Positions 33,849 through 64,000 of a DNA stretch of 64,000 bases are shown here, in pieces. Under the pieces are notes generated by a model. It was not told where the DNA came from and searched no databases. It saw nothing but the letters and a program-made list of their open reading frames with translations. The translations under genes and the position numbers were made by a program. The DNA comes from an uncultured Solirubrobacteraceae bacterium (GTDB lineage Bacteria; Actinomycetota; Thermoleophilia; Solirubrobacterales; Solirubrobacteraceae): the NCBI GenBank assembly GCA_963759945.1, contig CAVXBH010000014.1, positions 88,884 through 152,883 on the forward strand. Reading direction: 5' to 3'. The number at the start of each line of letters is the position of its first letter. Position 1 is the first letter of the stretch.

Positions 33849-33851
33849 CGG

Positions 33852-44727: not shown

Positions 44728-44875
44728 GATGGTTCCTCTCGTAGATGTCGGGAACCGGGCGCGCGCTCGGTGACCCTGAGAGCCACAAGTCGCTCGCCGT
44801 GTGACGAGCCGGTCTGCCTAACTGACCAAATCGACGCTCTGCTGGCGCGTCGAGGCTCTAGCCTCGCGGGGGCTG

Positions 44876-45475: not shown

Positions 45476-46152
45476 GCGACCAGCAAGACCCGCACGTCCA
45501 GATGCGCGAGCGATTCCGCGAGGCCGCCGCGCGTCAGATCGAATCCGAGCAGAGCAAGCGCGGCCTGGGGCGCTTGAAGCATTTCCGCACGCTCGCCGTC
45601 CTGCTCGGCTTGGGAGTGACCGGCGCCGGCGCCGCGACGGCGGTCGAACTGATCTCCGTCGGCAAGGATCGACCGGACGTTGTCGAGGATCGGCCAGATC
45701 GCTACAGCCCGTCTACCGAGGAAGGGCCTGTGGTGGCCCTGACGGCTAACGACCCCGAGCAGAAACTCCCATGGGGAGTCGCGGTCTACGAATCGCCGGC
45801 GGGCGAGAACTGCGTGCTCGTCGGCCACGCGCTCGGTCCCAAGCTCGGTGAGATCAAAGACGGCGAATTCCGCCCATTCGAGCCGGGAACCGGGGGGCCT
45901 TGCGGCAACAATATGGAGCGGCCCCTCTTTCTCCAGAGTGGGCCGGTCGACGGCCGGTTCCTGATCTATGGTCGCGCGCGCGAAGACGTGGACACGCTCG
46001 AGATTCGTGCTGGTGCGCAGAGCTTCCGAGCCGACACGGGAACCGGCGGCGCGTTTCTTTTCGTCTTCGATGAGGAGCCTCGCCAACCACAGCTGCGCCT
46101 GTTCGACTTCCGCGGTCGCGAGATCCCGCTCACAGCAGCTCGCGACAGTTGA
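45472..46152 (+). CDS. single-pass membrane protein, putative anti-sigma factor
   Basis: GTGA overlap with the sigma stop. Cytoplasmic N-terminus, TM FRTLAVLLGLGVTGAGAATAV, extracytoplasmic domain. Confidence 0.55.
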   Translation: MSDQQDPHVQMRERFREAAARQIESEQSKRGLGRLKHFRTLAVLLGLGVTGAGAATAVELISVGKDRPDVVEDRPDRYSPSTEEGPVVALTANDPEQKLPWGVAVYESPAGENCVLVGHALGPKLGEIKDGEFRPFEPGTGGPCGNNMERPLFLQSGPVDGRFLIYGRAREDVDTLEIRAGAQSFRADTGTGGAFLFVFDEEPRQPQLRLFDFRGREIPLTAARDS

Positions 46153-46377
46153 CCGATCGCCCGCTGCGTAGCGGTTACGCGGTCTATCTCCCCGCCCATC
46201 CGCGGCCACCTGAAGACAGGACAATCGACGCGCTTAGCAGCCAGCGCGCGGAAGCCCTTATGTAACTGTCCTGACACATCGAACCGATTCGCGACAGAAT
46301 CCGGCCGCTCTGACCGTTGCGTTCCCAGAATAATCCGAGGCAACACAGGCTTCGGCGGCAACGAACGGAGAATCGAA

Positions 46378-47775
46378 ATGATCGGCTCGATAGCCAGAAC
46401 GGCAAAGCTCGCACCGCGGTTAGGGCGGTTGCTCTCGGCGTTGCTCATGCTTTGCGTCAGCGCGTTGATCGGAGCGGGGCAGGCGCGAGCGGTCGACCGG
46501 ACGCTTCTCGATTCGGGTTCGACGAGCCTGCCGGAGCCGATGGAGCGTCCGGCGCCCGAAGCGGCCGAAGTGCAGCTCACAATGGACGAAGCGCTCGACA
46601 AGGTTCCGGCGGAGGCCGTCGAGTCTTACGTCAAGCGGTTTGACGTGCCTTCGGCGGAAGCTGAGAGACGGATAGCCGTCCAGATCGTTTCGCCCGGCGT
46701 GCGGGAACGGCTTCGCGACAGTCTTGGGAACGGGCTAACCGACGTATGGTTCGACAACCGAGCGGGCGAGATCGTGGTCGCAACCACGAAGGATGTGGCG
46801 CCGGAGCGACTCGACGCCCTGATGGGTCAGCAACAACTAGCAGGCAGCTATCGAGTCGAGATCGCATCCTTCGAATTCGACGAAATGGTTGCAGTGGCCG
46901 AACGCCTTCGGATCGATCTGAGCGACCTCTTCGCTAAGGGTGACGTGATCGTCTCGTGGGGCGCCGGAAGGGTCGAGATCGAGCAGAGCGCGAGCATCGG
47001 AGCAGCCGACCTGAGAACCGTCGACGAGGCGGTGGCGGGCGCCCGCGAGCGCTCTTCGGTGACCATCACCCGCACCACCGGCCGCGACACCCTCGCCACG
47101 GTGCCCGCGCTCTCGTGCTCCTTCCCCTTCTGCGACCGTCTCCTCGGCGGCGTCAAGTGGGAGCCATCGACTCAGAACGGCTACTGCACGACCTCGGTTC
47201 CCGCTGACCTCGCCGGCTACCGCGTCCTCTTGACCGCTGGCCATTGTGTCTCCGCGTACGGCAACGGGCTAGCCGTCGGATCGAGGACCTCCCCCACGGG
47301 TGCTTACAAGCCGATCGGGAACATCTACCTCGGGTTCAACGACGCAAATGGGGATTGGGGGTGGATTCTGCCTTCATCGCCTTGGCCTTCGGCGTTTGGC
47401 TCCGGCCCGATTCTCGGCTGGTTCAATTGGCAACCGGCCCCCGCAACGAGTGAGAGCACGCAGTATGCACGCTTGACATCGACCGTCCCGTACGGATACG
47501 TCGTCTGTCATAACGGCGCGACCACCGGCACCAACTGCGGTTACGCCACGGGCGTAAGCGGCCCGTTTCAGTGGTCCGTAAGCCAGTTCAACTGCGGCGG
47601 CGACAGCGGCGGCGAGGTCCACCAGCCGGGTGGTGGCGCCGTCGGCATCGACGTCTTCAGAAACGACCCCTGGGGCAACCAGTGCGGCAACGAGATGGGA
47701 TTCACGACGCTCATGAGCATCAAGTCCTGGGCCAACTCGGCCGGCTATACGTTCACCATCCCGCTCGCGATCTGA
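46378..47775 (+). CDS. secreted S1-family (alpha-lytic/streptogrisin-like) serine protease with pro-region
   Basis: Signal peptide, LTAGHCV (His), CGGDSGG (Ser). Intact 465 aa. Confidence 0.85.
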   Translation: MIGSIARTAKLAPRLGRLLSALLMLCVSALIGAGQARAVDRTLLDSGSTSLPEPMERPAPEAAEVQLTMDEALDKVPAEAVESYVKRFDVPSAEAERRIAVQIVSPGVRERLRDSLGNGLTDVWFDNRAGEIVVATTKDVAPERLDALMGQQQLAGSYRVEIASFEFDEMVAVAERLRIDLSDLFAKGDVIVSWGAGRVEIEQSASIGAADLRTVDEAVAGARERSSVTITRTTGRDTLATVPALSCSFPFCDRLLGGVKWEPSTQNGYCTTSVPADLAGYRVLLTAGHCVSAYGNGLAVGSRTSPTGAYKPIGNIYLGFNDANGDWGWILPSSPWPSAFGSGPILGWFNWQPAPATSESTQYARLTSTVPYGYVVCHNGATTGTNCGYATGVSGPFQWSVSQFNCGGDSGGEVHQPGGGAVGIDVFRNDPWGNQCGNEMGFTTLMSIKSWANSAGYTFTIPLAI

Positions 47776-47951
47776 CCGATACGGCGCGCCTTCGCCCAAG
47801 CGGAGGCGCGCCGAAGGCGGTCGACCCGTAGGACTTGAGTTTGTGCGGTCGCGTCGTCCCCGACGCACGGGTTGCGGATCCGCCGCAACCATCTGACGAC
47901 CGAATTGTTTTAGCGAACGAACACGCATGCTCCATATGAAGGGAACTTCAG

Positions 47952-48440
47952 ATGACCGAACTGAACAAACGACGCCTCCAGCGCCTGGTTGTCGCCTCTG
48001 GCTTCGGGTTAGTACTCGCGGCTCCCGGACTGGCTAAGGGGACCGATCCGCCCGAGGCGCAGCCGGCCCAGGCCTCCCCGATGACCGTGGCATGGATGCC
48101 CTACTCGATCCTCGGCGAGAAGCCCAGGCGCCCCTCCAAAGACGCGCGCAAAATTCGCATTGTCTATGGCGTGGGCGGTTGCGTCGAAGCCGACGGCACC
48201 ACCACACAAGTGGAGGAACTCGACCACATCGCCGTGCAGCGGCGCACCGGGCACGTCACCATCACCGTGCACACTCGTTCCATTGAGCGACAAGGCCCGG
48301 CCGGTCCCTACGGCGATCTCTGCGCTGGCATTGGAATCAACAAGCAAGCGACTGTCTCAATGCGGGGCCGGCTCGGTAAGCGCGCCGTCCGGGACGGCCA
48401 CTTCACCCCGCCGCGGGTTGTATGGAAGGCGCGTCGCTGA
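47952..48440 (+). CDS. secreted hypothetical protein
   Basis: RRLQRLVVASGFGLVLAAPGLA signal. Confidence 0.45.
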   Translation: MTELNKRRLQRLVVASGFGLVLAAPGLAKGTDPPEAQPAQASPMTVAWMPYSILGEKPRRPSKDARKIRIVYGVGGCVEADGTTTQVEELDHIAVQRRTGHVTITVHTRSIERQGPAGPYGDLCAGIGINKQATVSMRGRLGKRAVRDGHFTPPRVVWKARR

Positions 48441-49620: not shown

Positions 49621-50031
49621 GTGATCGCGGTGAACTCCGTGCAGCTGATCGGCAACCTCACCAAGGACCCCGAGTCCCGTGCCACCACCGGTGGCACGGA
49701 CGTGTGCTCGTTCCGCGTGGCGGTCAACAACCGCCGCAAGCAGGGCGAGAAGTGGGTCAACAAGCCCGGCTACTTCGACGTGACGGTGTTCGGCAACCTC
49801 GCCACCGTCTGCGCCGAGTACCTGGGCAAGGGCCGCAAGGTCGCCATCTCCGGTCGCCTGGACTACCAGGAGTGGACCACCGAGAACGACCAGAAGCGTT
49901 CCAAGGTCGAGGTGATCGCAAGCGAGGTCAGCTTCCTGTCCCCCGCCCCCGAGGCGAGCGACGAGGAGCCGGCGGCCGAGGAGACGACCAAGTCCAGCGG
50001 ACGCAAGTCCAAGGAGAAGGCCGCCGCCTAG
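49621..50031 (+). CDS. ssb: single-stranded DNA-binding protein, short, non-canonical basic C-terminus
   Basis: AGAAGGAGAA RBS then GTG. NSVQLIGNLTKDPE OB-fold text. Ends SGRKSKEKAAA. Confidence 0.85.
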   Translation: MIAVNSVQLIGNLTKDPESRATTGGTDVCSFRVAVNNRRKQGEKWVNKPGYFDVTVFGNLATVCAEYLGKGRKVAISGRLDYQEWTTENDQKRSKVEVIASEVSFLSPAPEASDEEPAAEETTKSSGRKSKEKAAA

Positions 50032-50044
50032 GCACTCGCGCCAC

Positions 50045-50080
50045 CGGCGGGTCCGCGGCTCTCACGAGTCGCGGGCCCGC
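50045..50080 (+). terminator. GC-rich hairpin after ssb copy 1
   Basis: GGCGGGTCCGCG-N12-CGCGGGCCCGCC, a 12-bp stem with one G.T pair and no U-tract. Confidence 0.4.
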
Positions 50081-50307
50081 CACCCACTTGCTCCCTCCAT
50101 CGCTTCAGACCGATGCCCCCACCCACGTCCAATCACCCCTGCCCGAGCGCCCGCACGACAGCTCTCGTCACAGCTTTCGCCGCTTCGGTCCCTCCTTCGC
50201 GTGCGACCGATGGCGGCACCGACACGTCGGCCGCAGAACAGCGGCTGCGAGCCAGCCACCATTCACTCACAATCGCCCGCCGGCTGAGGGCGCTGAAAGG
50301 AGGGCGG

Positions 50308-50688
50308 ATGAACTCCGTCCAGCTGATCGGGAACCTCACCCGCGACCCGGAGCTGCGCTCCACCAAGTCCGGCACAGCCGTGTGCGGTCTGCGCCTGGCC
50401 GTCAACGGCCGCCGCAAGACCAGCGACGGCGCCTGGGAGGAGGTGCCCAACTACTTCGACGTCAGCGCCTTCGGGCGGCTGGCCGAGACGTGCTCCGAGC
50501 ACCTCGAGAAGGGCCGCAAGGTCGCCATCACCGGCCGCCTCGAGTTCCGCGAGTGGACCACCGACGAAGACCAGAAGCGCTCGGCCGTCGAGGTCGTCGC
50601 CGGTACCGTCGACTTCCTCTCAAGCGGCGGCCAGATCATCGGCCTGCCCGCCGCGGAGGACGAGGAGTTCGAGCCGGCGCTCGCCTAG
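50308..50688 (+). CDS. ssb: single-stranded DNA-binding protein paralog
   Basis: GAAAGGAGGG RBS then ATG. MNSVQLIGNLTRDPELR. Ends AAEDEEFEPALA. Confidence 0.85.
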   Translation: MNSVQLIGNLTRDPELRSTKSGTAVCGLRLAVNGRRKTSDGAWEEVPNYFDVSAFGRLAETCSEHLEKGRKVAITGRLEFREWTTDEDQKRSAVEVVAGTVDFLSSGGQIIGLPAAEDEEFEPALA

Positions 50689-50817
50689 GCGAGCGCTCGC
50701 ACGTTCGCCCGGCGCGGACGCCCGGCGTCCCCATCTTGGCACCGCCTGGCGGCGGTGCGGTGGGGACCGCCCGGGCGGCCGCGGCCGGCGGCGCCCGCAG
50801 ACCAGGGAAGGAACCTG

Positions 50818-51150
50818 ATGCGCCCAGCCTCCATCGCCCAGCTCCAGCAGCTCGGCTACCCAATCGCCGACGACGGCATGATGCGGATGCCGCCCGCGCC
50901 GCGATGGCCTGTCGATCCGCCGCCGCTTGAGGAGCAGTTCGCCGCGCTGTTTTCGATGACCCCCGCCGAGCGCGTGGCGGCGATGTACCGCGGCGAGCTC
51001 ACCTACACCCAGCTGTGCAAGTGGGCGGCGCGCTATCCGAGCGAGCTGGCGCTCGTCGACGGCGAGTTCGTCTTCATCGCCGCCCAGCTGCCCGACTACG
51101 AGGACTCGCCCACCGTCCGCGTGAGCGTGCCGACCGCGCAGGCAGCTTGA
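50818..51150 (+). CDS. hypothetical protein
   Basis: GGAAGGA RBS 5 nt upstream of the ATG. The stop overlaps the primase ATG. Confidence 0.5.
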   Translation: MRPASIAQLQQLGYPIADDGMMRMPPAPRWPVDPPPLEEQFAALFSMTPAERVAAMYRGELTYTQLCKWAARYPSELALVDGEFVFIAAQLPDYEDSPTVRVSVPTAQAA

Positions 51151-52190
51151 TGAGTGGCCTCTCGCGCTACGGCACCCCGGGCGATGTCCGCAGCTTCTAT
51201 GCCCAACTGGGCGTCGAGCTGCCGGGCTGGTCACGGCGGGAGGCGCCGGTGCGGTGCTTCGCCGACCCCGAATCGCACGCCAGAGGTGACCGTGACCCAT
51301 CGTGCTCGGTGAACCTCGCTTCGGGCGCCTGGTCCTGCCACGGCTGCGGCTCAAGCGGCGGCGCCTACGACGCCGCACTGCTCCACGGCCGCAACGCGCG
51401 CGAGGCGATCGACCTGATGATCGACTGCGGCCTCACCCAACGCCGCGACCCCTCCCGGAACCGGACGGGCACTCCACGCACAGCCAGCCAACCCGCTCGC
51501 CGGCCACGCGGCGCGGCGATAACCCAGCCGCGATCCTCGAAATCCGCGCCCGGACCGCGGGCCTCCGAGCCCGAGCTCGCAGCGTGGGCTCGGCGGCTAC
51601 TCGGCGACCAGCCGCTGCTTGATCGCCTCGCGCGCGGGCGCGCGTGGAGCGAGGACGTCATCGAGCGCCACGGCGTCGGCTGGGACGGCACGCACATCAT
51701 CCTCCCCGTGCGCGACCTCGAGCGGCGCCTGGTCGCGGTGGCGCGCTACGCGCCGCCGTGGCTACGCGGCGATGAACCGAAGCTGCGAGCCCTGCCCGGC
51801 TCGCGCCAGTATCTATTTCCCTCCCCCGCCGCCCTCAAGGCGCCGACCATCTGGATCGTCGAGGGCCACCCCGACGCGCTCGCCGCCCTTTCAGTGGGCC
51901 TGCACGCGATGGCCGTGCCCGGCGTGTGGGGCTGGAGCTCGCGGTGGGCCCCGGTGCTTGCCGACCGTGACGTGATCGTCTGCATGGACTGCGACGCCGA
52001 AGGCCGACGGGCGGCGATGCGGATCTCCGCCGATCTGATCGCGCCGGCGCGCACTGTGCGGGTGCTCGACCTCGATCCCGACCGCGACGACGGCTACGAC
52101 CTCACCGACCTGATCCTCGAACTGCGCCAGGCAGGCCTGGCGCTCGGCACCGAACTGCCCAGGCGGGCGTTCTCCGTTGAGCCACGCTGA
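51150..52190 (+). CDS. mobile-element DNA primase-like protein (CHC2-like zinc finger plus TOPRIM)
   Basis: CFADPESH...CSVNLASGAWSCHGCGSSGG, then TOPRIM IWIVEGHPDALA and VCMDCDAEG. Intact. Confidence 0.7.
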   Translation: MSGLSRYGTPGDVRSFYAQLGVELPGWSRREAPVRCFADPESHARGDRDPSCSVNLASGAWSCHGCGSSGGAYDAALLHGRNAREAIDLMIDCGLTQRRDPSRNRTGTPRTASQPARRPRGAAITQPRSSKSAPGPRASEPELAAWARRLLGDQPLLDRLARGRAWSEDVIERHGVGWDGTHIILPVRDLERRLVAVARYAPPWLRGDEPKLRALPGSRQYLFPSPAALKAPTIWIVEGHPDALAALSVGLHAMAVPGVWGWSSRWAPVLADRDVIVCMDCDAEGRRAAMRISADLIAPARTVRVLDLDPDRDDGYDLTDLILELRQAGLALGTELPRRAFSVEPR

Positions 52191-54913: not shown

Positions 54914-54953
54914 GGCCGGATCGGGTCCGAGACGGACGAACTAGACCGCTTCA

Positions 54954-55076
<123 letters not shown>

Positions 55077-55211
55077 TCAAGAGCGTCTTTGTGTCCGATC
55101 ACGAACCCGGGGTTTGACCATCATCGGTCCGGACTGGTAGAAGCTGCTCTGAGGGAAGTGTCAGATCGACGGCTCGGTTCGGACATGTGTCGTCAGACAG
55201 AAAGGGCGCAT

Positions 55212-55877
55212 ATGAAGTACATGCTCGGTCGGAAGCCCCGACTCCAAACCGTTGCGACAGCCGTCGTGCTAGGGGTTCTGCCCCTGGCAGTGATCGTGGC
55301 CCCGAGCAGCGAGGCGAGCTCCAAGGCGAAGCGTCAAGCCGCAGAGCCGCTTGTGCAAGTTTGTCACGCAGCATTGGGGCCGGCAGTCGACGGCCAACCC
55401 TCTCCGGTACTCGATACGGGGTGCTTCCGAGCGACTGAGGCGCAGGCCGATGCCTACACCGAGACAGGAATCGGCGCCGAAGCAGCAAGAAGGAAAAAGG
55501 GGCCGAAGGCGCGAGCGAGCGCCACCTACGATCTCGCACTTATGTGGAAAGACACGCAGGGCAACGGTTCGCGGTACGTCTTTACGACAACGTCCTCCTG
55601 CGAGCTAAACGGAAGGTACTTCGAGGCAACCGACTTTGGCAACAGTTCAAAGTGGGGCGTCACATGGCTTAACAATAACGTTGAGTCAGATGTACCGAGT
55701 GCGACCTTCGCCCAATGCTATCGAAATATTCTCTTCGACAACGCCCAACTCACGGGTGACGCAGCGAACTGCGACAGGGAGGACACCATCGTAGGCTCGA
55801 CTTGCTGGTACGGAATTACCAGCAGCATGAACAACCGCGCCAGCTCGGCACGCTTCAAGTGGGGGAGCGGGCACTAG
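55212..55877 (+). CDS. secreted protein with beta/gamma-crystallin / inhibitor-I36-like C-terminal motif
   Basis: MKYMLGRKPRLQTVATAVVLGVLPLAVIVAPSSEA signal. C-terminal CWYGITSSMNNRASSARF resembles the N(D/N)RASS strand of that fold. Confidence 0.55.
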   Translation: MKYMLGRKPRLQTVATAVVLGVLPLAVIVAPSSEASSKAKRQAAEPLVQVCHAALGPAVDGQPSPVLDTGCFRATEAQADAYTETGIGAEAARRKKGPKARASATYDLALMWKDTQGNGSRYVFTTTSSCELNGRYFEATDFGNSSKWGVTWLNNNVESDVPSATFAQCYRNILFDNAQLTGDAANCDREDTIVGSTCWYGITSSMNNRASSARFKWGSGH

Positions 55878-56347
55878 CGCGATAGATGGGACAACACCTG
55901 GGGCCATCCGACTATCGGATGGCCCCGCGGTAGTGCTGGCGGACTGTCAATCCGAGGTCCGTGAACCGCGCGCCCGCCGGCAACGGTTTCCGAGACGTCC
56001 TGCGGGGACCGGCGCGCTCCAGAAACGGTCCGGCAGCTCGAGCCGTGAGGACCGCGAGAACGTCAATCCGAACGAACGGGGCCGACGAGCACCTCGACGA
56101 AACGCGTCCTTCCGTGCGTCCGCGTGACGGTCAGCGCGAGCCACCATCCAGGCGCCCCGGTTAGGGCGCCGCAACTAGGGCATGGCTCGCGTAATGGCCG
56201 CCGCGGTGAGAGAATTCAGCCTCGACGTCGGAGAGTCGCCTTCTACGGAGGCTCGCCGGAACCACTGGAGCGCGCGGCCGCCGGAAGTGTTCGTACGAAG
56301 AACCGGTGGGCGATGGTGTCACCTGGCCAGCGCGAATGCTGGCGTTC

Positions 56348-56539
56348 CTAGTCGGTTTCGGCGTGGTCCACGAGCCCGGCGTTGCGAGCGCTGCCCGCAC
56401 ACCAGTGATACGAGCGCGGCGGATAACCGAACTCGCTGTGCCAATGCTTGACCGCTGCGACGATCGCGTCGCGGGACCAGGTGTGCCGGGCGGCGTAGTG
56501 ATGGACGTTGCCGTTGCGGCGGCGCGTCGGCATGCCCAT
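56348..56539 (-). pseudogene. fragment with a homing-endonuclease-associated repeat (W.R..I..A...W....G.PP....W)
   Basis: HTWSRDAIVAAVKHWHSEFGYPPRSYHW. The surrounding 56.5-56.9 kb reads only in pieces. Confidence 0.3.
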
Positions 56540-56879
56540 CGATTACGGCATCCCGGAACGGCGTCCTTGATCGTCGTTTCCAGGCGGCGAAGCATGCACG
56601 ACGTTCGTGAGCTGAGCACCTCGGACAATGCCTCAGCCCTGCGCGGTGGTCCCCGACGTTCGCCTGTCAGCGTGCAAGCCTCGCCGCGTGCCGTTCGCAA
56701 GCTCTGCCTCGGATGTGAGCACTGGGCGCCCGCTGAGGCGTGGCGGTCGCTTGGCCGCGCAGGTTTCAGGAGGCATTTCCCGGTTGCGGCGCCGGTTACG
56801 ACGTTGCCGAGCTCGAGACATGCCTGGCGGTGGATCTCGGAAGGGGTGCGCCGCCGCCGGCGAGGTCGTAGGCGCGATG

Positions 56880-57639
56880 CGCGGCTCACGTAGCGATCCG
56901 TCGGCGTCTTCGCGGGAGTAGACGATCGTCACGCTCGCCCCGGGTCGGCCGTGGCTGACTCGATTGGTGAGCGCGACGACGCGCCGACCGTCGACGTCGC
57001 AGATGGCGTGCAGCTTGCCGCCGCGGCCGCGGATGACGGTTCTCAACTGGCCTTGGACGGCGTGGCGGGCTTTGTGCTTTCGCCAGCTCGAGCAGCGTCC
57101 GGCACGGTAGGTAGAGCGCGGGCGCTCGAGGATCGAGCCCTCGAAGCCCAGCTCGACGAGCTCGGCGTGGGTGCTCGGCTTGGCCGGCAGGTTGTCGATG
57201 GTGCGGATCCGCGTTGAGGAGAGGTCCAGCTGCCGCAGGCGCTGATCGCGGTCCTGCCACGGCTCGCGGCGGACGTCGGCGCCGGCGTCAGCGACCAGGT
57301 CGAAGACGACCAGCGCCAACCGGTCGGCGCCGCGGCGGTAGCGTCCGAACACGCCGCGGCCGACGGCGGCGAAGTCCTGCGCAGGCCGGCGGTCGCGGTC
57401 CCCTACTGCGACGAGCTCGCCGTCAAGGACGGTGCCCGCGGCCAGGTGTTCGAGGCCTCGCAGGAGGTCGCCGACCCTGTCGGTCAGGTCGGTGTTGTGG
57501 CGTGAGCGGGCCCGGACATGGCCGTGGGTGTCGACGTGCACGAAAAAGCGGTAGCCGTCCCACTCGGCTGCAGGATCCAGTCGTCGCCGTCGGGCCATTC
57601 GCGGGCGGGAGCACTGAGCATCGCTTCCCATCGAGCCAT
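56880..57639 (-). CDS. ATP-dependent DNA ligase (short LigC/LigD-ligase type), frame break inside the motif I lysine codon; 3' end approximate
   Basis: MARWEAMLSAPAREWPDGDDWILQP | (K)WDGYRFFV, DGELV, FEGSILERP, WRKHK, DGSLREPR. Confidence 0.7.
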
Positions 57640-57676
57640 GAGGCGAGGCTAGATCGCGCTGCCAGTGCGTGGGCCA

Positions 57677-57748
57677 TGCCCGCCCCGACTGTGGCACGCC
57701 TGGCGGCGTGCGGCCGGGGTCGGGACAGGCCCCGCACCGGGCGGGGCC
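57677..57748 (+). promoter_or_regulatory. two-hairpin repeated leader element, copy A (upstream of comM)
   Basis: GCACGCC-TGGC-GGCGTGC, then GGCCCCGC-ACCGG-GCGGGGCC. About 72 nt, near-identical to 59302-59374. RBS and ATG follow within 25 nt. Confidence 0.6.
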
Positions 57749-57772
57749 GCCCTGCGAGAAGGAGCAGAGCAC

Positions 57773-59284
57773 ATGCTGGCATCAGTCACGTCGTTCGCTA
57801 TCGACGGTGTCCAGTCGCGGCGGGTGACCGTCGAGGTCGATGTCCGTCGCGGCCTGCCCGCGTTCACCGTGATCGGCTTGGCCGACGCGTCGGTGCGCGA
57901 GGCGCGCGAGCGGGTCCGTTGCGCGATCGAGAACGCCGGCTTCACGTTCCCCGCGGGGCGGGTCACCGCGAACATCGCGCCGGCGTACCTGCGCAAGTCC
58001 GGCCCCCACTTCGACCTCGCGCTCGCCGTCGCCGTGCTGGTGGCCAGCGGACAGCTCGACACCGCGGCGATCGCCGGGTGTGCGTTCGTCGGCGAGCTCT
58101 CGTTCGAGGGGGCGGTGATGCCGGTGCGGGGTGCGCTGCCGATCTCCCAGGCCGCCGCTCGGACCGGTGTCGCCAAGCTGGTGGTGCCCGCGTCGCGGGC
58201 CGCTGAGGCCGCGCTCGCCGGGGGCGTGGAGATCCTGGGCGTGCAGTCGCTTCCCCACGCCGTCGGCGTGCTGCAGGGCCAGACCGAGCCGGTGAGTCCG
58301 AGCGCGGGCGTCTGCCTGTCGGCCGACGACGAGCCCGACCTGTCAGACATCCGCGGCCACACCGCACTGATCGAGCCGCTGACTGTCGCCGCCGCGGGCG
58401 GCCACAACGTCCTGCTGCAGGGCCCGGCCGGTTCGGGGAAGACGATGCTCGCCCGCCGGATCCCTTCGCTCCTGCCGCCCCTGTCCGAGGAAGAGGCGCT
58501 CGAGGTCACGGCCATCCATTCCGTCGCCGGCGTCGGTGACCGCGGCCAGCTGGTCACGCGCCGGCCGTTTCGCGCACCTCACCACCTGGTCTGCCCCGCC
58601 GCCCTGGTCGGCGGTGCCGCGGCCGCGCTGCCCGGTGAGGTCACGCTGGCGCACCGGGGCGTGCTGTTTCTCGACGAGCTGACGGAGTTCAGTCGCAACA
58701 GCCTCGAGGCTCTGCGTCAGCCGCTTGAGGACGGCCGCGTCGTGGTGGTCCGGGCGCAGCGGGTCATGGTGTTCCCGACCCGGGTGATGCTCATCGCCGC
58801 CGCAGCGCTGTGCCCGTGCGGGCTCGGCGAGCCGTCGTGCCGCTGCACCGGAGCCGAGCGCGCCCGCCACCACCGGCGGCTGTCCGGTCCGCTGCTGGAT
58901 CGCGTCGACATGGCGTTGCAGGTGCCGCGCCCCTCGGCGGGCCAGCTGCACGACCATGCGCCGAGCTCGTCGTCGGTGCGCGAGCGCGTGGTTGCCGCCC
59001 GGGCGCTGCAGACCGAGCGGCTGGCCGGGACGGGCGCGAAGTGCAACGCGCAGATGACGCCGGCGATGCTGCGCGAGCTGGCGCGGGTCACGCCTTCGGC
59101 GCGGCGGCGGTTGTACGACATGCACGACGTCGACGCGCTCACCGCGCTCGGCCACCACCGGTTGCTGCGGGTCGCACGCACCATCGCCGACCTGGCCCAG
59201 TCGCCCGACGTCGAGCCCGGTCACGTCGACCAGGCGATGTCGCTTACGTCGCCTCCGAGGGTGGAGGTGGCGGCGGCGTCGTGA
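57773..59284 (+). CDS. comM: ComM/YifB-family Mg-chelatase-like AAA+ protein; intact
   Basis: GAAGGAG RBS. MLASVTSFAIDGV, Walker A GPAGSGKT, Walker B VLFLDE, CPCG...C zinc module. Confidence 0.9.
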   Translation: MLASVTSFAIDGVQSRRVTVEVDVRRGLPAFTVIGLADASVREARERVRCAIENAGFTFPAGRVTANIAPAYLRKSGPHFDLALAVAVLVASGQLDTAAIAGCAFVGELSFEGAVMPVRGALPISQAAARTGVAKLVVPASRAAEAALAGGVEILGVQSLPHAVGVLQGQTEPVSPSAGVCLSADDEPDLSDIRGHTALIEPLTVAAAGGHNVLLQGPAGSGKTMLARRIPSLLPPLSEEEALEVTAIHSVAGVGDRGQLVTRRPFRAPHHLVCPAALVGGAAAALPGEVTLAHRGVLFLDELTEFSRNSLEALRQPLEDGRVVVVRAQRVMVFPTRVMLIAAAALCPCGLGEPSCRCTGAERARHHRRLSGPLLDRVDMALQVPRPSAGQLHDHAPSSSSVRERVVAARALQTERLAGTGAKCNAQMTPAMLRELARVTPSARRRLYDMHDVDALTALGHHRLLRVARTIADLAQSPDVEPGHVDQAMSLTSPPRVEVAAAS

Positions 59285-59301
59285 CCGCCGGTGCGGAGCG
59301 C

Positions 59302-59374
59302 TGCCCGACCCCGACTTTGGCACGCCTTACGGCGTGCTGCGGGGGCCGGGACAGGCCCCGCACCGGGCGGGGCC
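59302..59374 (+). promoter_or_regulatory. two-hairpin repeated leader element, copy B (upstream of the ParB-like gene)
   Basis: Same stems as copy A. The loop of hairpin 1 differs (TTAC vs TGGC) while the stem is kept. Confidence 0.6.
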
Positions 59375-59392
59375 ACTCGCAACAAAAGGGAG

Positions 59393-61201
59393 ATGACCAT
59401 CGTGTCAATCGCCACCACCGTTTTCACCGAGCACGTCGAGCAGCAGCTCGTGCCCCTGGCGTCTGTTATCGCCGCCGGCAACGTCCGCGATCTCGACCTC
59501 GAGCACGTCGAACGACTTGGCCGCGTCGATCGCGCTTCGCGGCCTGATCAGCCCGCTCACTGTCAAGCCGACCGAGGACGGCTCGTTCGAGCTGGTGGCC
59601 GGCTTCCATCGCCACGCCGCCTGCACCAAGCTCGGCCTCGAACGAGGTGCCGGTGACCGTCCGCACCCACGAGGGCACGTCCGCCGACTCGGCCGCCGAG
59701 AACGTCCTGCGCAAGCAGCTGACGCCGCTTGAGGAGGCGCGCGCGGTGCAGGCGATGCTCGACGAGGGCTACACCCTCGACGGCGCCGCCGACCGTGCTC
59801 GGGCTGGAGCCGCGCACTCGTGACGGCGCGCGCGAAGATCCTCGAGCTGCCGGAGCAGGCGCAGTTGCTCGTCGGGGCCGGGCAGATCCCGGTGTCGGCG
59901 ATCGACTCGCTGCTGACGCATCAACACGGTCTCGCCGGAGCTCACCGCGGCGCTGGCCAACGGCGATCGTCGAGGGCGACGTCGCGCGGCACCGACCTGC
60001 GCGGCAACCTCGGCTGGGCGCTCGGCCGCGCGATGGGTCATGCCCCGAAGGGCACGTTCGCCGCGTACCTCAACACGCTGTCGACGCGCGAGATCGAGCC
60101 GCTCAAGCTCGGCAAGCGCGTCGACGGCGCAGCTCGAGCAGGCCGCAGGCGCTCTACAAGGCAGCTCGACCAGTACGCCTACGGGCTGCCGACGATCCGC
60201 TTCACCGAGGAGCACGTCGACCAGGCCCGCGCCGCCGGCGTCCTCATCGAGCTCGACGGATGCCGCCGCCGATCATCGTCGACCGGCCGCTCTACCGCGA
60301 GCTGGCCAAGGCGGCGATCGAGCAACACCGTCGCGGAGCTCGAGGAGCGCAAGCAGCGCAAGGCCGAGCAGCAGACCCAGCTGCGCGCGGAGTCCGCCGC
60401 GCGGCCCAAGACGCCGCGGGACGAGCTCGACGTCGAGCACCGCGCGCAGGCCCGCGAGTTCGCCCGCCGCGCGCACGGCGTCAACCTCGACCTCGGCGCG
60501 GCGCTGCTGAACGGCCTGCTCCATCGTCGACCCGGCCGACATGGACGTCGCGCGGTTCTTCGCGCTGCGGGCCTGCTCGGGCCGGAGCGCTCCAACCACC
60601 TCGGCAGCGCCGACAACGTCGCCCGCACCCTCGCCGCCAACGGCATCCGGCTCGTCCTCGACGAGTTCCGCACCACCGAGACCCCGACGCTGAAGTCCGG
60701 CAAGCCGGGCAAAACGAAGGTCACCTACGGCGAGGTCGACGACGCACAGGCGTGGCTGTGGAAGTTCGTCAACGGGCGCCAAGACCGCCGGCGAGCTCTA
60801 CGGCCGCGCGCTCGTCGTCTACGCCGCCCAGCACTACGCGCTGCAGATCGCGCTGCCCAACAGCCAGCGCCGCGGCGTCGTCGCGCCCGCCTCGCAGAAG
60901 GACATCGCGAGGAAGGCGCTGGAGAAGCTGGCCAAGCCGGTGCTGCCCGACACCTACAAGCAGCTCACGCGCGCGATCGCGCGCGAGGCGACCGGCTACC
61001 GCAAGTCCATCGAGGACCTCGAGCAGAAGGAACGCGAGGCCCGTGACGCCGCCCGCAAGGAGCCGCCGAGGCCACCGATGCCGCGGCCGGGCACTGCCAC
61101 CGAGGCCCGAGGTCGACGAGGAAGCGGCCGGGCTGGACGTCGACGAGCTCGCCGAGGCCTTCGACGCGGAGGAGCTCGACTCCGAGGAGGCGCTCGCCTG
61201 A
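59393..61201 (+). CDS. long ParB/Srx-fold N-terminal domain protein, several frame breaks
   Basis: LISPLTVKPTEDGSFELVAGFHRHAAC, ENVLRKQLTPLEEARA. Continues through ORFs 59820.. and 59729... Acidic tail EELDSEEALA*. Confidence 0.7.
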
Positions 61202-61776
61202 TGGGCGAGTTCGCGCTCTACGGCCCCGAGCAGATCAAGATCGGGACCTGCGAGGACCTCTACTACCTGCGCCCCGAACAGGCGCAGGTGGTGCGGCCTG
61301 TCGACGTCGCCGGCGAGTTCGACTGGTCGGTCTACCGGTTCCGCTTCCCGTGGCCCGACGAGGACCACGTCGCTCCCGGGGACTTCGACGACTTCGACAA
61401 GGGCTGGCTGCTGCAGCTACCGCCCACCGAAGGCGTCGAGCATCAGCCGGTGGAGTTCCGAAACACCAACATCGGCTACCGGGTGCATCTCCCATGTCCG
61501 GAGACCCGCGGCGACAACGGTCTCGATGTCGTCCGCAGCCGGTTCACCGGACCGGTTCATCTCGTCCAGCAGCGGCTGTGGGACGGATGCCTGGTGCCGG
61601 TGCTGCGCTGCGTGTGCGGGACGCGGTGGCGCCTTGAGACGATCGACGACTGCCTCGAGCTCCTCGCCGAGTTGCAACGGCAGGACTTCCTCGGCGACGA
61701 GTGGGCCGACGAGATCCACCGGCGAATTGTGCGCGGCTTCGATCGCAGGTATGTGCGCGCCATCGGGCTCGCCTGA
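61201..61776 (+). CDS. hypothetical protein
   Basis: The ATG overlaps the upstream TGA. Intact 191 aa, Cys-containing. Confidence 0.55.
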   Translation: MGEFALYGPEQIKIGTCEDLYYLRPEQAQVVRPVDVAGEFDWSVYRFRFPWPDEDHVAPGDFDDFDKGWLLQLPPTEGVEHQPVEFRNTNIGYRVHLPCPETRGDNGLDVVRSRFTGPVHLVQQRLWDGCLVPVLRCVCGTRWRLETIDDCLELLAELQRQDFLGDEWADEIHRRIVRGFDRRYVRAIGLA

Positions 61777-61803
61777 CCATCCCCGTCATCGGTCGTTTCG
61801 GTT

Positions 61804-61829
61804 GAGAGGCCCGCCCTGGTGGGCCTCTC
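61804..61829 (+). terminator. hairpin GAGAGGCCC-N8-GGGCCTCTC
   Basis: Perfect 9-bp stem 28 nt after the stop at 61776. Confidence 0.45.
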
Positions 61830-61843
61830 GTCGTGGCGTCGGA

Positions 61844-61878
61844 TTCCCAACTGAGCGGCGCCAGCCCGTGCATTACCG
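61844..61878 (+). promoter_or_regulatory. repeated 5' element, copy 2 (see 49328-49362)
   Basis: TTCCCAACTG-N8-CAGCCCGTGCATTACCG, followed by AGC then the ATG at 61882. Confidence 0.4.
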
Positions 61879-61881
61879 AGC

Positions 61882-62634
61882 ATGGCCCGCCGATCCGCTC
61901 CGTCAGCGTTCGAGATCTCCGACGAGCCCGATGAGGACACGGACTTCGACGCCACACTGCCCCCGCTTGCCGCTCCGCTCGTTGCCTCCCCCTCTCTCGG
62001 TGAACGGGGCGGCGAGCAGCTCGACGACTTCTCGTCGCGTTCCACGCGTCGCGAGCGGCTATCGGCGCGCGCCGGCGCTTCACGCCCGTCGATGCCGGCG
62101 CCGCTGGCGCCGTTGCTCGAGGATCGTCGCCGGCTCGCCGCGGCGGCCGCCGCGTTCGCCGTCGCGTCACTGATCGTCGTGGTGCTTATGGGCGGCGGGC
62201 AGGGCGCTCCGCAGACCGGGACTGCCGCGCGCTCGCCAGAGCCGATTGCCCAGCCGGAGCAGAAGAAACCCGGCAAGCGTCCTGGTCCTCCGGTTGCTCC
62301 GGCGGCTGCCCGGCGCGTGGCGGCCCGGGCGAGTCCGGTTGCCGGCGGGCGTCCGCAAGCGGCGCGTCCGTCGCAGCCGGTGAAAGTGCCGGCCTCCCCG
62401 TCGCGCCAGGAGGACGACCGCCGCGAGCGCTCCGAGCGCGAGCGTCGGACCCACCAGCGCGAGCGCGAAGCCCAGCGCGCGGCCGAGACCGCCCCGGTGC
62501 TCGCCGCGCCGCCGCCGGCGCCGTCGACGCCGGTGGTGCCCGCCCCGGTGGCTCCTGCAGCGCCTGCCTCTCCCCCGCCGCCGCCTTCGTCTCCCGCCAG
62601 CGAATACGACCAGGAGTTCGGTCTCGATGGCTGA
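61882..62634 (+). CDS. proline-rich single-pass membrane protein
   Basis: TM AAAAAAFAVASLIVVVLMGG, then a Pro/Ala/Arg-rich tail. Confidence 0.5.
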   Translation: MARRSAPSAFEISDEPDEDTDFDATLPPLAAPLVASPSLGERGGEQLDDFSSRSTRRERLSARAGASRPSMPAPLAPLLEDRRRLAAAAAAFAVASLIVVVLMGGGQGAPQTGTAARSPEPIAQPEQKKPGKRPGPPVAPAAARRVAARASPVAGGRPQAARPSQPVKVPASPSRQEDDRRERSERERRTHQREREAQRAAETAPVLAAPPPAPSTPVVPAPVAPAAPASPPPPPSSPASEYDQEFGLDG

Positions 62635-63477
62635 GCCCGCCGTCGCCATGGACCGCACGTCCCTGTCTGCCGCGCGCCGCAGGGCGCTGCTGCCGCGCCG
62701 GGCGTTTCTGACCGTCGTCGGGTTGTTCTGCGTTCTCGGCGTGAAGGAACTACTTGCCCCGACGCCTGAGCCGGTCGCACAGGCCGCCGCGGCGCCGATC
62801 GTCGACGACGTCTCCTCCACGGGGTTCGCCGAGGCCTTCGCGCGTGCCTACCTGACCTGGGACCCCGCCGACCCGGAGCGCCACGCCATCGACCTGGCGC
62901 CGTTCCTCGGGCCTGACGTCGACGTCGACGCCGGCCTGCCCGTGCCCGTCCGAGGGCGAGTCGCAGCGGGTGACGTGGACCGCGGCGATCGAGCGACGTC
63001 GACACCGACCCGGGCCGTACCGTGGTCACCGTCGCGGTCGCGGTCGAGGGAGAGCTCGCGGCTGCGCTACCTGGCCGTGCCGGTGGCCGCGCCGACAACG
63101 GCGGGCTGGCCGTGGCCGACTACCCGGCGCTGCGTCGGCGCGCCGCGTCCGGCGCCGAGCTCGCCGGCCGCGACGGCGACGACGATCGACGACGCCGACC
63201 TGGTCGACGGTGGTGCGGCGGGCGCTGGGCAACTACCTCGCCGGCGCCGCCGACAACCTGCGCGCCGACCTCGCCCCGGACGCGCGTGCTGTCGCTGCCC
63301 GCGCCGGCGCTCTCGCCTCGACGACGTCGTCTCGCTGCAGTGGGCGGGGCGCGACCGCGGCCGCGTGAGCGCGGTGGTGGTCGCCCCGATGCGGCGGGCG
63401 TCGCCTACACGCTGCGCTACGAGCTCGCGGTCGCCAGGCGCGACCGCTGGTACGTGGCGGAGATCAACCCCCCATGA
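62627..63477 (+). CDS. TcpC-like conjugal transfer protein, frame breaks
   Basis: N-terminal TM FLTVVGLFCVLGV, GFAEAFARAYLTWDP, C-terminus AYTLRYELAVARRDRWYVAEINPP*. Confidence 0.5.
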
Positions 63478-63494
63478 CTCGAAAGGAGTCCTCC

Positions 63495-63840
63495 ATGAAG
63501 GCATCCTCACCGTCCTCCGGCGCTCGCCGCGATGCTGGCGGCCCACCGCTGGCCGCGCTGGCGCTCGCGCTGCTGCTGGTGCTCGCGGTCTGCGCCGACG
63601 CGCAGCGCCGCCGCCGACGTCAAGAACGCCGGCAAGAACATCGCCGCCACCCTCAAGACGTGGGCCGCGGCGCTGTTCGGCGGCGTCACCGGGATCATGG
63701 CGCATCTACTTCCTGATGCGCGCAAGGTCGGCCCCGCGCTCGGGTTCTGCGCGCTGGCGATGCTCGTCGGCGCGTTCGTCTTCGCGCCCGGCGCTGATGG
63801 GCGAACGTCTCGAGAGACATCGCCAAGACGATCTTGAAGT
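63495..63840 (+). CDS. small secreted two-TM protein (possible pilin-like transfer component), frame breaks
   Basis: Signal LAALALALLLVLAVCADA, then IAATLKTWAAALFGGVTGIMA and GFCALAMLVGAFVF. Confidence 0.3.
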
Positions 63841-63844
63841 AGCC

Positions 63845-64000
63845 GTGCGCGCGCCCGCGTCACTGGTCGGTTCGAGAGCAGCTCGAGATCCGCTCGTTTC
63901 GCGTCGTCTTCGCGCTCGAGCGGCGGCTGTTCCGCATCGACCGGTGGCGGCTGCCGCTCCCGTACGGCGTCCCCGTGCGCGGCATCGGCTACGCCGCCGC
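63845..64000 (+). CDS. TcpE-like transfer protein, 5' part only (runs off the window)
   Basis: FRVVFALERRLFRIDRWRLPLPYGVPVRGIGY matches the TcpE-family N-terminal pattern as I recall it. The start is not resolved. Confidence 0.35.
   Translation, partial: MRAPASLVGSRAARDPLVSRRLRARAAAVPHRPVAAAAPVRRPRARHRLRRR

Follow-up and report, generated by a model that had tools for sequence, protein, structure and literature searches.

A conserved, strongly base-paired hairpin module stands before establishment genes (coding for ParB-like, ArdC, primase and ComM proteins) in a family of type-IV-secretion conjugative elements (ICEs) of Solirubrobacterales. This element probably controls when these genes are switched on, and we tentatively propose that it is a promoter or priming site embedded in a hairpin.

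Three copies of the element lie in the establishment block of the window

The 64-kb window, that is, the whole stretch of DNA analysed, comes from an uncultured Solirubrobacteraceae bacterium. The initial annotation had pointed to two look-alike stretches on the plus strand, one before comM and one before a ParB-like gene, and both were indeed found in the sequence at these places (Table 1). Their near-identity is real, since copies A and B, of 88 nt each, are 82% identical without gaps and about 90% identical with one indel pair; the repeat search extended the repeat 16 nt further 5' than the boundaries first given (57677 and 59302). The last 27–30 nt of the two copies, GGGACAGGCCCCGCACCGGGCGGGGCC, are identical, and the terminal 27-mer has two exact occurrences in the window, compared to none expected from 100 dinucleotide shuffles. 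Covariance-model matches cover 57651–57775 for copy A (78.7–82 bits, E about 1e-14) and 59277–59395 for copy B (103–110 bits, E about 1e-19). A start codon had also been placed within about 25 nt of each copy. This holds for copy A, with the comM ATG 24 nt past its end, and for an ATG at 59393, 18 nt past the end of copy B; however, judging by the orthologues and by where the RBS lies, translation of the ParB-like gene probably begins at the GTG at 59402, 27 nt past the end.

Beyond these two, a third copy (copy C) is present in the window. It reaches from 20 nt past the second SSB stop codon to 22 nt before the ATG at 50818; its centre reads TTGGCACCGCC-TGGC-GGCGGTGC and its 3' hairpin GCCGC-GGCCG-GCGGC. 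The window carries two SSB genes, a Toprim primase gene and the ParB-like gene, nearly all on one strand. The ParB-like gene appears to be broken by about 17 single-base insertions and, when read through these frameshifts, belongs to a large Solirubrobacterales family found inside ICEs. Its ParB-like homologues number roughly 900. The comM gene of the window is an extra copy: in relatives the chromosomal comM (65% identity) sits in a tight yraN-comM-dprA cluster, and no hairpin was found upstream of these chromosomal orthologues. No further copy of the element was detected in the other 60 kb of the window or at two chromosomal comM loci (L056 and L057). Copies A and B are best explained by a recent event in which the ParB-leader copy was duplicated and came to stand before a captured comM.

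Table 1. Coordinates of the hairpin element, its parts and the neighbouring genes in the window.
Feature	Position	Strand	Remarks
Copy A of the element	57661..57748	+	Upstream of comM; repeat comparison, fold, covariance-model match
Copy B of the element	59287..59374	+	Between the comM stop codon (59282–59284) and the ParB-like gene
Copy C of the element, diverged	50708..50795	+	E 9e-4 with a covariance model built without copy C
ANNNT motif	57688..57692 (copy A); 59314–59318 (copy B); 50733–50737 (copy C)	+	ACTGT; ACTTT; ATCTT
Central hairpin H1	57694..57711 (copy A); 59319–59338 (copy B)	+	GCACGCC-TGGC-GGCGTGC
Alternative 3' hairpin H2	57728..57748 (copy A); 59354–59374 (copy B)	+	GGCCCCGC-ACCGG-GCGGGGCC
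Two tandem SSB genes	49630..50688	+	PF00436; upstream of copy C, same establishment-gene block
110-aa ORF	50818–51150	+	Downstream of copy C
Toprim primase-like gene	51150–52190	+	After the 110-aa ORF, downstream of copy C
ATP-dependent DNA ligase gene	56633..57639	-	Frameshifted; divergent from comM; start 21 nt from copy A
comM/YifB-family AAA+ gene	57773..59284	+	503 aa, intact, GC3 0.90
ParB-like gene	59402..61201	+	ParB_N and HTH_ParB, about 560–600 aa; orthologues mark the ICE family

The element is shared by related ICEs and tied to the start codon of the next gene

In the window and five related loci we found 11 solid and two weak copies of the element. Every copy is oriented as the gene that follows and ends 19–27 nt before its start codon, the position being fixed relative to this downstream start codon and not to the upstream stop codon. 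The genes following the solid copies encode ParB-like proteins (six cases), ArdC (two), a primase or a primase-adjacent ORF (two) and ComM (one); one weak copy precedes ArdC, and the other (L062, 6578) an ATG with no annotated gene. The related loci are T4SS ICEs with genes for VirB4-like, T4CP, Replic_Relax, ArdC, SSB, primase and methylase proteins, and a single conjugative element carries three to four copies, every one of them linked to a start codon. Placement, in the copies added by our search as in the original pair, is fixed and not random. Upstream, the neighbours vary between the end of a co-directional gene, a divergent helicase gene, an IS21 and a GmrSD-like gene, and the loci compared suggest an element independent of its upstream context.

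The 15-mer CCCGCACCGGGCGGG is identical in seven copies located upstream of ParB-like genes and comM. The ParB copies of loci L061 and L062 are alike and so are their ArdC copies; orthologous copies group by gene and not by element, which argues for long vertical inheritance under selection. Three other related elements (L063, L074 and L072) have long hairpins at the same place that are not homologous to the family, and no ANNNT loop (see below) was evident by eye in those of L063 and L074.

The initial annotation had not recognised the repeat as a known motif, and our searches agree with it. Rfam cmscan of 55000–64000 returned four unrelated weak matches at E≤10, none of them on the element, and copy B had no blastn match at E≤0.01 among 72,556 PLSDB plasmids; with tblastn, the ParB-like protein likewise had no close relative there. 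In viral contigs the exact 27-mer had no match, a degenerate hairpin-2 pattern had eight unrelated matches, and an alignment search with the ParB-like protein reached relatives at 35% identity only. Scans with a 19-mer from the element gave 26 matches in 185,579 genomes and 29 in JGI metagenomes, all considered chance matches because just 19–24 nt were matched (in one case 30 nt at 93%). We found no description of such an element in the literature.

Two mutually exclusive folds both show compensatory changes

Each copy had been described as a pair of hairpins. Both stems are present, one of 7/8 bp (GCACGCC/GGCGTGC) and one of 8 bp (GGCCCCGC/GCGGGGCC), and the loop of the first hairpin does differ as reported (TGGC versus TTAC). 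The two-hairpin fold, however, is an alternative conformation; at minimum energy each copy folds into a single nested hairpin about 84 nt long with about 31 bp (z-scores of -3.2 and -4.8 for copies A and B), which in copy A spans 57661–57742. The outer stem of this long hairpin uses the 5' strand of the second hairpin (H2), making the two structures mutually exclusive. Predicted stabilities of these GC-rich hairpins range from -47 to -65 kcal/mol; with DNA parameters, minimum free energies lie between -26 and -41 kcal/mol for both strands of the 11 copies.

Covariation was assessed on the 11 homologous copies from six loci. MAFFT alignments led to contradictory RNAalifold consensus structures, and for this reason we used covariance-model alignments together with explicit pair counts. 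In the long hairpin 87% of the cells are paired, compared to 38–48% in slid controls, and compensatory double changes occur in 15 of the 31 pairs, a level reached in none of 500 shuffles. The central hairpin H1 (helix 2) is 89.8% paired with three doubly changed pairs, and a U·G pair at its foot is kept in 9 of the 11 copies. H2 is 93% paired, with 3 of its 8 pairs compensated and two more in a weaker copy. The 3' half of the element is better conserved than the 5' half; terminal loops of 3 or 4 nt (TGGC, TTAC, TGAC, TAC, TTC) and bulges differ between copies. The counts in both structures substantiate the selection on structure that the initial annotation had proposed, and with far more weight than a pair of copies would allow. 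Moreover, the four L062 copies have different stems, each of them internally compensated, which fits base pairing and not a protein reading two half-sites. That the element works via base pairing, and not as a repeated protein-binding word, is the best explanation of these data.

The invariant positions form an ANNNT core in an internal loop

The only A and T invariant in all 11 copies (alignment columns 40 and 44) form an A-N3-T core within an asymmetric internal loop. In Mycobacterium smegmatis, ANNNT is the -10 core of 79% of the promoters, and there a -35 consensus is absent (PMC6448022). In the element the core is always without a T at -12 (VANNNT). ANNNT is the same on both strands and so gives no indication of the acting strand; the loop is located about 9 bp from the terminal loop and not at the stem base, so that no -35 is rebuilt on the template-strand hairpin.

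Several other signals were considered. The promoter scan revealed no sigma-70 consensus -35/-10 pair, and the candidate -35 in register with ANNNT, GTGCGG, is found 13–16 nt away depending on the copy and is unconvincing. The centre TGGCACG resembles the -24 box of a sigma-54 promoter, but the -12 TTGC is absent, and to our knowledge Actinomycetota have no sigma-54. An ECF-type -35/-10 pair was discarded as well, the conserved 3' block being one continuous 23-nt palindrome and not two boxes. Finally, both copies are open in frame with the gene that follows, yet a leader peptide or N-terminal extension was rejected because the copies differ in their distance to the start codon by numbers of nt not divisible by 3 and the RBS comes after the element.

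With regard to strand preference, the mismatches in the stems comprise 17 G·U, 13 A·C and 30 others, a DNA-like spectrum in which wobble pairs are not enriched. The antisense (template) hairpin is the more stable one in 7 of 11 copies with RNA parameters and in 8 of 11 with DNA parameters; with the latter the strand difference has a mean of -0.9 kcal/mol, which is not significant, and the phylogenetic relatedness of the copies brings the effective n of this comparison below 11.

A possible promoter or priming site on single-stranded DNA

The genes of a conjugative element, together with the hairpin before ArdC and primase genes in relatives, point to the paradigm of single-strand promoters and priming sites known from Frpo and sso. 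Our tentative proposal, which we put forward as plausible, is that the element is a functional analogue of these, active while the ICE is single-stranded, either during or just after conjugative transfer or in rolling-circle replication. The hairpin of about 31 bp would rebuild duplex DNA around a pre-melted -10 core, the invariant A-N3-T in its internal loop, and the host RNA polymerase could initiate there while the second strand is still missing. On this model the strand complementary to the genes would be the first to enter, the genes lying close to the leading end. Transcription would yield an early mRNA for the gene 19–27 nt downstream, a primer RNA for second-strand synthesis, or both. 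The conserved 3' arm and tail would also form the 5' end of the mRNA and fold as H2, which would explain both the covariation of H2 and the better conservation of the 3' half. The family, its placement, both covarying structures, the ANNNT invariants and the ICE context are observed, whereas promoter activity, its dependence on single-stranded DNA, the acting strand and the transcription start are what we infer here. A pair of mutually exclusive covarying structures is a classic signature of RNA switches and counts against this proposal, as do the lack of a sigma-70 consensus pair and of a T at -12, the location of the core near the terminal loop, the small strand difference with DNA parameters and the non-homologous hairpins of L063, L074 and L072.

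Frpo1 and Frpo2 of plasmid F are directly repeated hairpins, 92% identical, which lie upstream of ssb and other leading genes and are active as single-stranded DNA only (PMC9849209; PMC11541004). Like the Frpo/ssi sequences of F, ColIb-P9 and related plasmids, the element is a long imperfect hairpin, and according to the minimum free energies with DNA parameters and the covariation over 31 pairs it is a long and stable one. Both occur as several similar direct repeats, the identity of copies A and B (about 90%) being close to that of Frpo1 and Frpo2. Both stand just upstream of co-oriented establishment genes of the ssb, ParB-like, anti-restriction and primase type in a T4SS conjugative element, and both have a -10 region that is not fully paired; the gene classes downstream of our element and their co-orientation fit leading-region genes. 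On the other hand, the element resides in Actinomycetota, and it has no sequence similarity to Frpo/ssi as judged by the PLSDB blastn search, a collection expected to include F-type and IncI plasmids. Its stem of about 31 bp has roughly 75% G+C, and the consensus scan found no stem that would rebuild a canonical -35 (TTGACA) and -10 (TATAAT), only the ANNNT core. This core is near the terminal loop, leaving no -35 to be rebuilt, whereas that of Frpo is near the stem base.

Long hairpins that are strand-specific serve as single-strand origins in rolling-circle plasmids (ssoA) and in ICEBs1 (sso); there RNA polymerase starts a primer within the stem and moves towards the loop. The plus strand of the element has a similar geometry, with ANNNT on the 5' arm and a start expected in the central hairpin. 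In contrast, RS_B and CS-6 (TAGCGT in the loop) are absent from it, its terminal loops being those listed above, and it occurs in three or four copies bound to start codons, for which an sso has no need. The hairpin promoters of the phage N4 virion RNA polymerase have stems of 5–7 bp and are read by a polymerase that the phage encodes. Both these promoters and our element are small families of conserved DNA hairpins before early genes, which are used, or in our element would be used, in single-stranded or extruded form and with SSB involved, but no N4-type polymerase was identified among the annotated genes.

Alternative explanations

A sense-strand RNA leader or intercistronic switch in the mRNA, with the long hairpin and H2 as alternative folds, is the main rival and a live one, which we regard as possible and only somewhat less probable than the proposal above. 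Such a leader could be cut by RNase III in the long stem, whereupon the downstream fragment would refold into H2 as a protective 5' stem-loop; it could also act by attenuation or antitermination, or be recognised by an RNA-binding regulator that coordinates the establishment genes. Conserved hairpins beside an RBS are most often RNA leaders, and the two mutually exclusive structures with compensatory changes in both, the fixed orientation always 19–27 nt 5' of a start codon and the retention of the U·G pair at the foot of the central hairpin are all in line with this reading. So is the fact that about half of the copies are flanked by genes of one direction, in some cases directly at the stop codon of the upstream gene (copy B and L058). 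The long intercistronic RNase III hairpins of phage T7 early genes lie immediately 5' of the next RBS, and there as here the downstream RNA would keep a small protective hairpin after cleavage, although the mismatch spectrum and the strand comparison of our element disfavour sense RNA. A leader, attenuator or processing site had been among the candidates of the initial annotation, and what weakens it is that G·U is not enriched over A·C and other mismatches, that the antisense strand folds as well or better, with the sense strand being the less stable in 7 of 11 copies, and that the element contains an invariant, -10-like ANNNT loop which an RNA leader leaves unexplained. In addition, U-tracts are absent after both hairpins, the terminator scan was empty, the RBS is unsequestered in either fold, there is no matching Rfam family, and the copies behind divergent genes show no conserved promoter on their upstream side, where copy A has just 21 nt of room.

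The remaining explanations are much less probable. A double-stranded operator for the ParB-like (KorB-like) protein or another regulator, with the central or 3' palindrome as a parS- or OB-like site, was also suggested at first; we now consider it quite improbable. It would agree with the fact that the element precedes both the ParB-like gene and further genes in its block, a placement that recalls the KorB OB sites of plasmid RK2, and with the invariance of the 15-mer in the ParB-like and comM copies. KorB OB sites too are palindromes repeated upstream of several operons in a conjugative element that encodes a ParB-family protein. Nevertheless, OB and parS are sites of 13–16 bp with fixed sequence and spacing, whereas the compensated pairing of the element runs over about 31 bp and exceeds every known ParB or HTH site by a wide margin, its central spacer is 3 or 4 nt long depending on the copy, its bulges differ and the stems of the four L062 copies are different and internally compensated. 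Improbable as well is a selfish or recombinational palindromic repeat (MITE- or REP-like) or a cassette boundary, which would mark insertions and have no role in expression. The extra gene comM does lie between two direct copies about 90% identical, the element is an imperfect palindrome and the 30 identical nt could support homologous recombination. Yet the copies precede only particular gene classes with constant orientation and start-codon distance, orthologous copies group by gene and not by element, no target-site duplication is visible, the other 60 kb of the window and the loci L056 and L057 hold no further copies, and the scans with a 19-mer yielded chance matches alone. The three copies in the 64 kb are all in the establishment block and 19–27 nt from a start codon, which is not the distribution of a dispersed repeat. 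Integron attC sites share with the element an imperfect palindrome (60–140 nt), a promoterless gene at the flank and, on our proposal for the element, function as a folded single strand; however, the R'/R'' boxes with the RYYYAAC/GTTRRRY cores are absent from the element, which ends in GCCGGTGCGG ... CCGCACCGGGCGGGGCC with no AAC/GTT and instead keeps a constant spacing to the start codon of the gene on its 3' side, and no integron integrase was seen among the genes examined.

An origin of transfer, in which a relaxase would bind the hairpin and the nick site would adjoin or lie in the loop of the 3' hairpin, is very improbable. The arm beside the conserved tail is the better conserved one, as at many oriT sites, and genes of the ParB-like, ArdC and SSB kinds typically occupy the leading region beside oriT (PMC11541004), but three to four copies per element, each bound to a start codon, do not fit this function. 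There is also no adjacent relaxase gene; about 7 kb separate the element from the Replic_Relax gene of L059, and a distinct perfect inverted repeat lies closer to that gene. Most doubtful of all is a factor-independent terminator or an insulator between genes. The hairpins are very stable and GC-rich, and several come right after a stop codon; against this, no copy has a U-tract and the scan finds none (the tails of copies A and B read ACTCGCAAC... and GCCCTGCGAG...), in four cases the upstream neighbour is a divergent gene or an IS and there is nothing to terminate, and the position is set by the downstream start codon and not by the upstream stop.

Implications for conjugative elements of Actinomycetota

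The expression of anti-restriction, SSB, primase and ParB-like functions within the first minutes of entry is understood for a few proteobacterial plasmids only, via Frpo, and nothing comparable has been described for actinobacterial type-IV-secretion ICEs, elements that are barely characterised. A covarying, multi-copy hairpin at establishment genes is a concrete and easily testable candidate control point, and its covariance model provides a search handle for establishment regions in soil Actinomycetota. If the element is an RNA leader instead, it would still represent a structured cis-regulatory family not described before, able to fold in two ways and defining a regulon on a mobile element. 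Somewhat more guardedly than for the proposal itself, we suggest that this could be the first family of single-strand-active promoter or priming hairpins outside the Frpo and sso lineages and the first in Actinomycetota, a portable G+C-rich module ahead of each establishment gene, with no -35, with ANNNT in a pre-melted loop and a 3' arm that doubles as the 5' hairpin of the mRNA. If this is true, conjugation would generally include early 'zygotic' expression from the single strand that enters, a convergently evolved trait and not a peculiarity of plasmids of enterobacteria.

A repeated element precedes comM and the ParB-like gene

A repeat search of the window recovered an 88-nt direct repeat (57661-57748 and 59287-59374, copies A and B), which bears out the near-identical repeats that the initial annotation had placed before comM and the ParB-like gene. 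The two copies are 82% identical without gaps and about 90% identical when one indel pair is allowed, their final 30 nt being the same, and a 27-mer common to both is present at just two sites in the 64 kb (70% G+C), with none expected from 100 dinucleotide shuffles. The Rfam scan returned nothing at E<=10, in agreement with the earlier remark that the element was not recognised as a known motif, and consensus scans detected neither a sigma-70 promoter nor a terminator at either copy. Both copies are also open in frame with the next gene and would encode similar peptides (..RPRLWHA.RRAAG.GTGPAPGGA..), so that gene callers may extend comM and the ParB-like gene across them. A coding role is opposed by the RBS located 3' of the element and by the variable distance in other copies.

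Features of the window and of related loci (window positions unless a locus, L, is named)
Feature	Position	Description
Copy A	57661-57748	Inside the 133-nt gap from the divergent, frameshifted ATP-dependent ligase gene (start 57639) to comM (ATG 57773)
Copy B	59287-59374	Begins 3 nt past the comM stop codon; ParB-like gene next
Third copy in window (C, diverged)	50708-50795	5' of a small ORF plus primase
Further copies, L061, L062, weakly L059		5' of ArdC
Further copy, L062		5' of primase
Extra weak copy, L062
In-frame openings, copies A and B	57665-57772; 59291-59392
ATP-dependent DNA ligase gene (PF01068)	56633-57639 (-)	Divergent from comM; just 21 nt separate its start from copy A; frameshifted at least once, near 57560, with the KWDGYR motif there in another frame
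ParB-like gene	59511-60770	Stretch of the gene with ~17 single-base insertions
Non-homologous hairpins	L063 7900-8000; L074 7870-7970; L072 7880-7970	Unrelated sequence, e.g. CCGTCCGTGGTGTCGCG..CGCGGACACCGCGCGGACGG
Paralogous stretches	22500-27100	Two, 72-80% identical, ~2.73 kb between (families D3-D8, D15, D16), indicating tandem gene duplication
Broken-up GC3 trace	24-30 kb	Suggests more frameshifts
Region of lower G+C	30000-48000	Falls from ~72% to 62-68%; probably belongs to the same mobile element, as its variable part or cargo
1,740-aa protein with bacterial TSP3 repeat	33852-39077	In 30000-48000 region
IS3-family transposase	40861-42101	In 30000-48000 region
AbiEi-like gene	42548-43108	In 30000-48000 region
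Inverted repeat	~44284-44330	Near-perfect, 18-20 bp, GGTGATGCCGAGCGCC-ACCAG-GGCGCTCGGCATCACC; z = -4.0, strongest local fold of the window apart from the element family; ~500 nt 5' of ECF sigma gene
ECF sigma gene	44822-45475	In 30000-48000 region
Tandem SSB paralogues	49630-50688	Two; repeat family D2, 72% identity over 177 nt, spacing 681 nt
Tandem 9-nt unit	54939-55064	~12 copies of CACCGGCGA, immediately 5' of ORF 55065-55877
Inverted repeat, L059	15490-15525	Perfect, 14 bp, CGCGCGAGGTGTCC-TGAACG-GACACCTCGCGCG; 5' of coupling-protein/Replic_Relax operon; candidate oriT or operator of the L059 element

The neighbouring genes point to a conjugative element

Exact-word scans of genome, metagenome and viral collections for further copies gave chance matches only, and relatives were reached through the adjacent proteins. 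The window comM protein has relatives that are only 65% identical, all in Solirubrobacterales. Their comM occupies its usual place in a yraN-comM-dprA cluster, where no gaps separate the genes, and the window comM is therefore an additional copy that was captured. The ParB-like gene is not readable as a single ORF, and a read-through translation guided by the GC3 frame trace was used as the query. It matched 890 proteins at E<=1e-5, defining a family of ~555-aa ParB_N+HTH_ParB proteins in Solirubrobacterales with a best match of 81% identity. The contigs of these relatives contain type-IV-secretion conjugative elements, with genes that include those for a VirB4-like ATPase, lytic transglycosylase, coupling protein, Replic_Relax, ParA, ArdC, SSB, DnaG-type primase, ECF-like sigma factor and DNA methylase. 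The window has a comparable block, almost entirely on the + strand, in which comM and the ParB-like gene are accompanied by two SSB genes, a Toprim primase-like gene and ECF sigma genes. The region containing this block has a lower G+C and includes an IS3 transposase as well.

Compared with its 81%-identical orthologue at locus L058, the ParB-like gene shows ~17 single-base insertions (~1 per 70 nt, also outside homopolymers) and zero single-base deletions, while comM next door is an uninterrupted 503-aa ORF with no such insertions. This one-sided pattern looks more like a local long-read assembly or consensus error than natural pseudogene decay. The related contigs have Flye-style names. Copies A and B are unaffected, since their sequence is corroborated by L058.

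The element belongs to a family of gene-proximal hairpins

In five of the relatives' loci (L058, L059, L073, L061 and L062) the element lies immediately 5' of the ParB-like start codon, and the 15-mer CCCGCACCGGGCGGG is identical across these leader copies; in L058 the comM 3' end sits just before it, as in the window. With the diverged copies detected by a sliding MFE scan and by two covariance models, the family comprises 11 solid and 2 weak copies. Each shares the strand of the gene that follows and stops 19-27 nt 5' of its start codon, with space for an RBS only, while the sequence on the 5' side differs (gene end, divergent helicase, IS21 or GmrSD-like gene). Orthologous copies are closer to each other than copies sharing one element, which indicates that the copies are old and kept by selection. 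This does not hold for copy A, whose nearest neighbours are the ParB copies B and L058, pointing to a recent duplication linked to the insertion of comM. Three more members of the element family (L063, L074 and L072), whose ParB-like orthologues are 59-61% identical, carry long hairpins of non-homologous sequence at this place, and the site seems to need some hairpin rather than one specific sequence.

Two mutually exclusive folds show compensatory changes

Two successive hairpins had been proposed for the element. The second of these (H2, GGCCCCGC-ACCGG-GCGGGGCC) exists as an alternative, but the best fold is one long nested hairpin, with MFEs of -73 and -70 kcal/mol and z-scores of -3.2 and -4.8 for copies A and B. 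H2 is composed of the 3' arm of the long hairpin plus an 8-nt tail and is therefore an alternative fold, 1-10 kcal/mol costlier than the MFE. On a model-based alignment of the 11 copies, 87% of the cells of the 31 long-hairpin pairs are paired, versus 38-48% with partners slid by 1-3 columns, and 93% for the 8 pairs of H2, versus 39-64% in the slid controls. Changes on both sides affect 15 of the 31 pairs (32 cells; matched by 0/500 shuffles), while in H2 three pairs each show one compensatory change, C-G to U-A, G-C and A-U, each in a separate copy (reached by 2/500 shuffles), counts drawn from a small number of related copies in an alignment fitted to the long hairpin. The weak L062 copy adds two more swapped H2 pairs, and in copy L062:4140 the 5' arm (GTGCGTGG) and the tail (CGTG) both carry changes that match a C-to-A substitution in the 3' arm. 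Such double matching, together with the compensated pairs of both folds, suggests that both are under selection although they exclude each other, and the earlier claim of structural selection on the stems is supported.

A single-strand promoter is the tentative best fit

The initial annotation had also considered a protein-binding operator. The central loop of 3 or 4 nt, the bulges that vary among copies, and the stems that differ yet compensate within a single element argue against duplex DNA being read as an operator by a dimeric protein. Whatever probability the two readings discussed below leave is divided among an operator, a selfish repeat, an oriT and a terminator. By sequence-based and box-based criteria the element did not fall into the Frpo/ssi, ssoA, attC or parS/OB classes, nor was it an intrinsic terminator or a member of any Rfam family. 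As to an RNA leader or processing switch, which we consider the main rival and only somewhat less likely than the best fit, non-Watson-Crick cells comprise 17 G.U (9 of them at one single position), 13 A.C and 30 others, roughly what unselected mutation would produce. The antisense hairpin is as stable as the sense one or more so: it is favoured in 7 of 11 copies with RNA parameters (mean difference -3.75 kcal/mol) and in 8 of 11 with DNA parameters (mean -0.9 kcal/mol, not significant). These results are not decisive, but they are unlike what a typical sense-strand RNA structure would give.

The only invariant A and T of the whole element (alignment columns 40 and 44) form an A-N3-T in an asymmetric internal loop directly 5' of the central hairpin; the two weak copies have it as well. 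In M. smegmatis, 79% of the mapped promoters have ANNNT as their -10 core and a -35 consensus is absent (PMC6448022), and the motif is a candidate RNA-polymerase entry point within the hairpin. In the leading regions of F and ColIb-P9, Frpo/ssi hairpins restore a promoter on the single strand as it enters, and ssb, psiB, ardA and neighbours are thereby expressed early and transiently; plasmid F has two Frpo copies, 92% identical, a few kb apart (PMC9849209; PMC11541004). Our element resembles these in gene classes, co-orientation, multi-copy layout, unpaired -10 core and apparent independence of upstream context. Unlike Frpo, it lacks canonical boxes and its ANNNT loop is close to the terminal loop, so that a -35 cannot be rebuilt; ANNNT is strand-symmetric, and as read on the + strand the geometry instead resembles an ssoA-type priming site. 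We tentatively regard an Frpo/ssi-like hairpin, with a promoter rebuilt on the incoming single strand, as the best fit. Transcription starting in the stem of the template-strand hairpin would place the mRNA 5' end a few nt before H2, which would account for the H2 covariation and for the better-conserved 3' half of the element.

In the literature searched, no such hairpin has been described in Actinomycetota or in this element family. Altogether, we treat the element as a gene-proximal hairpin of the establishment region of a conjugative element.
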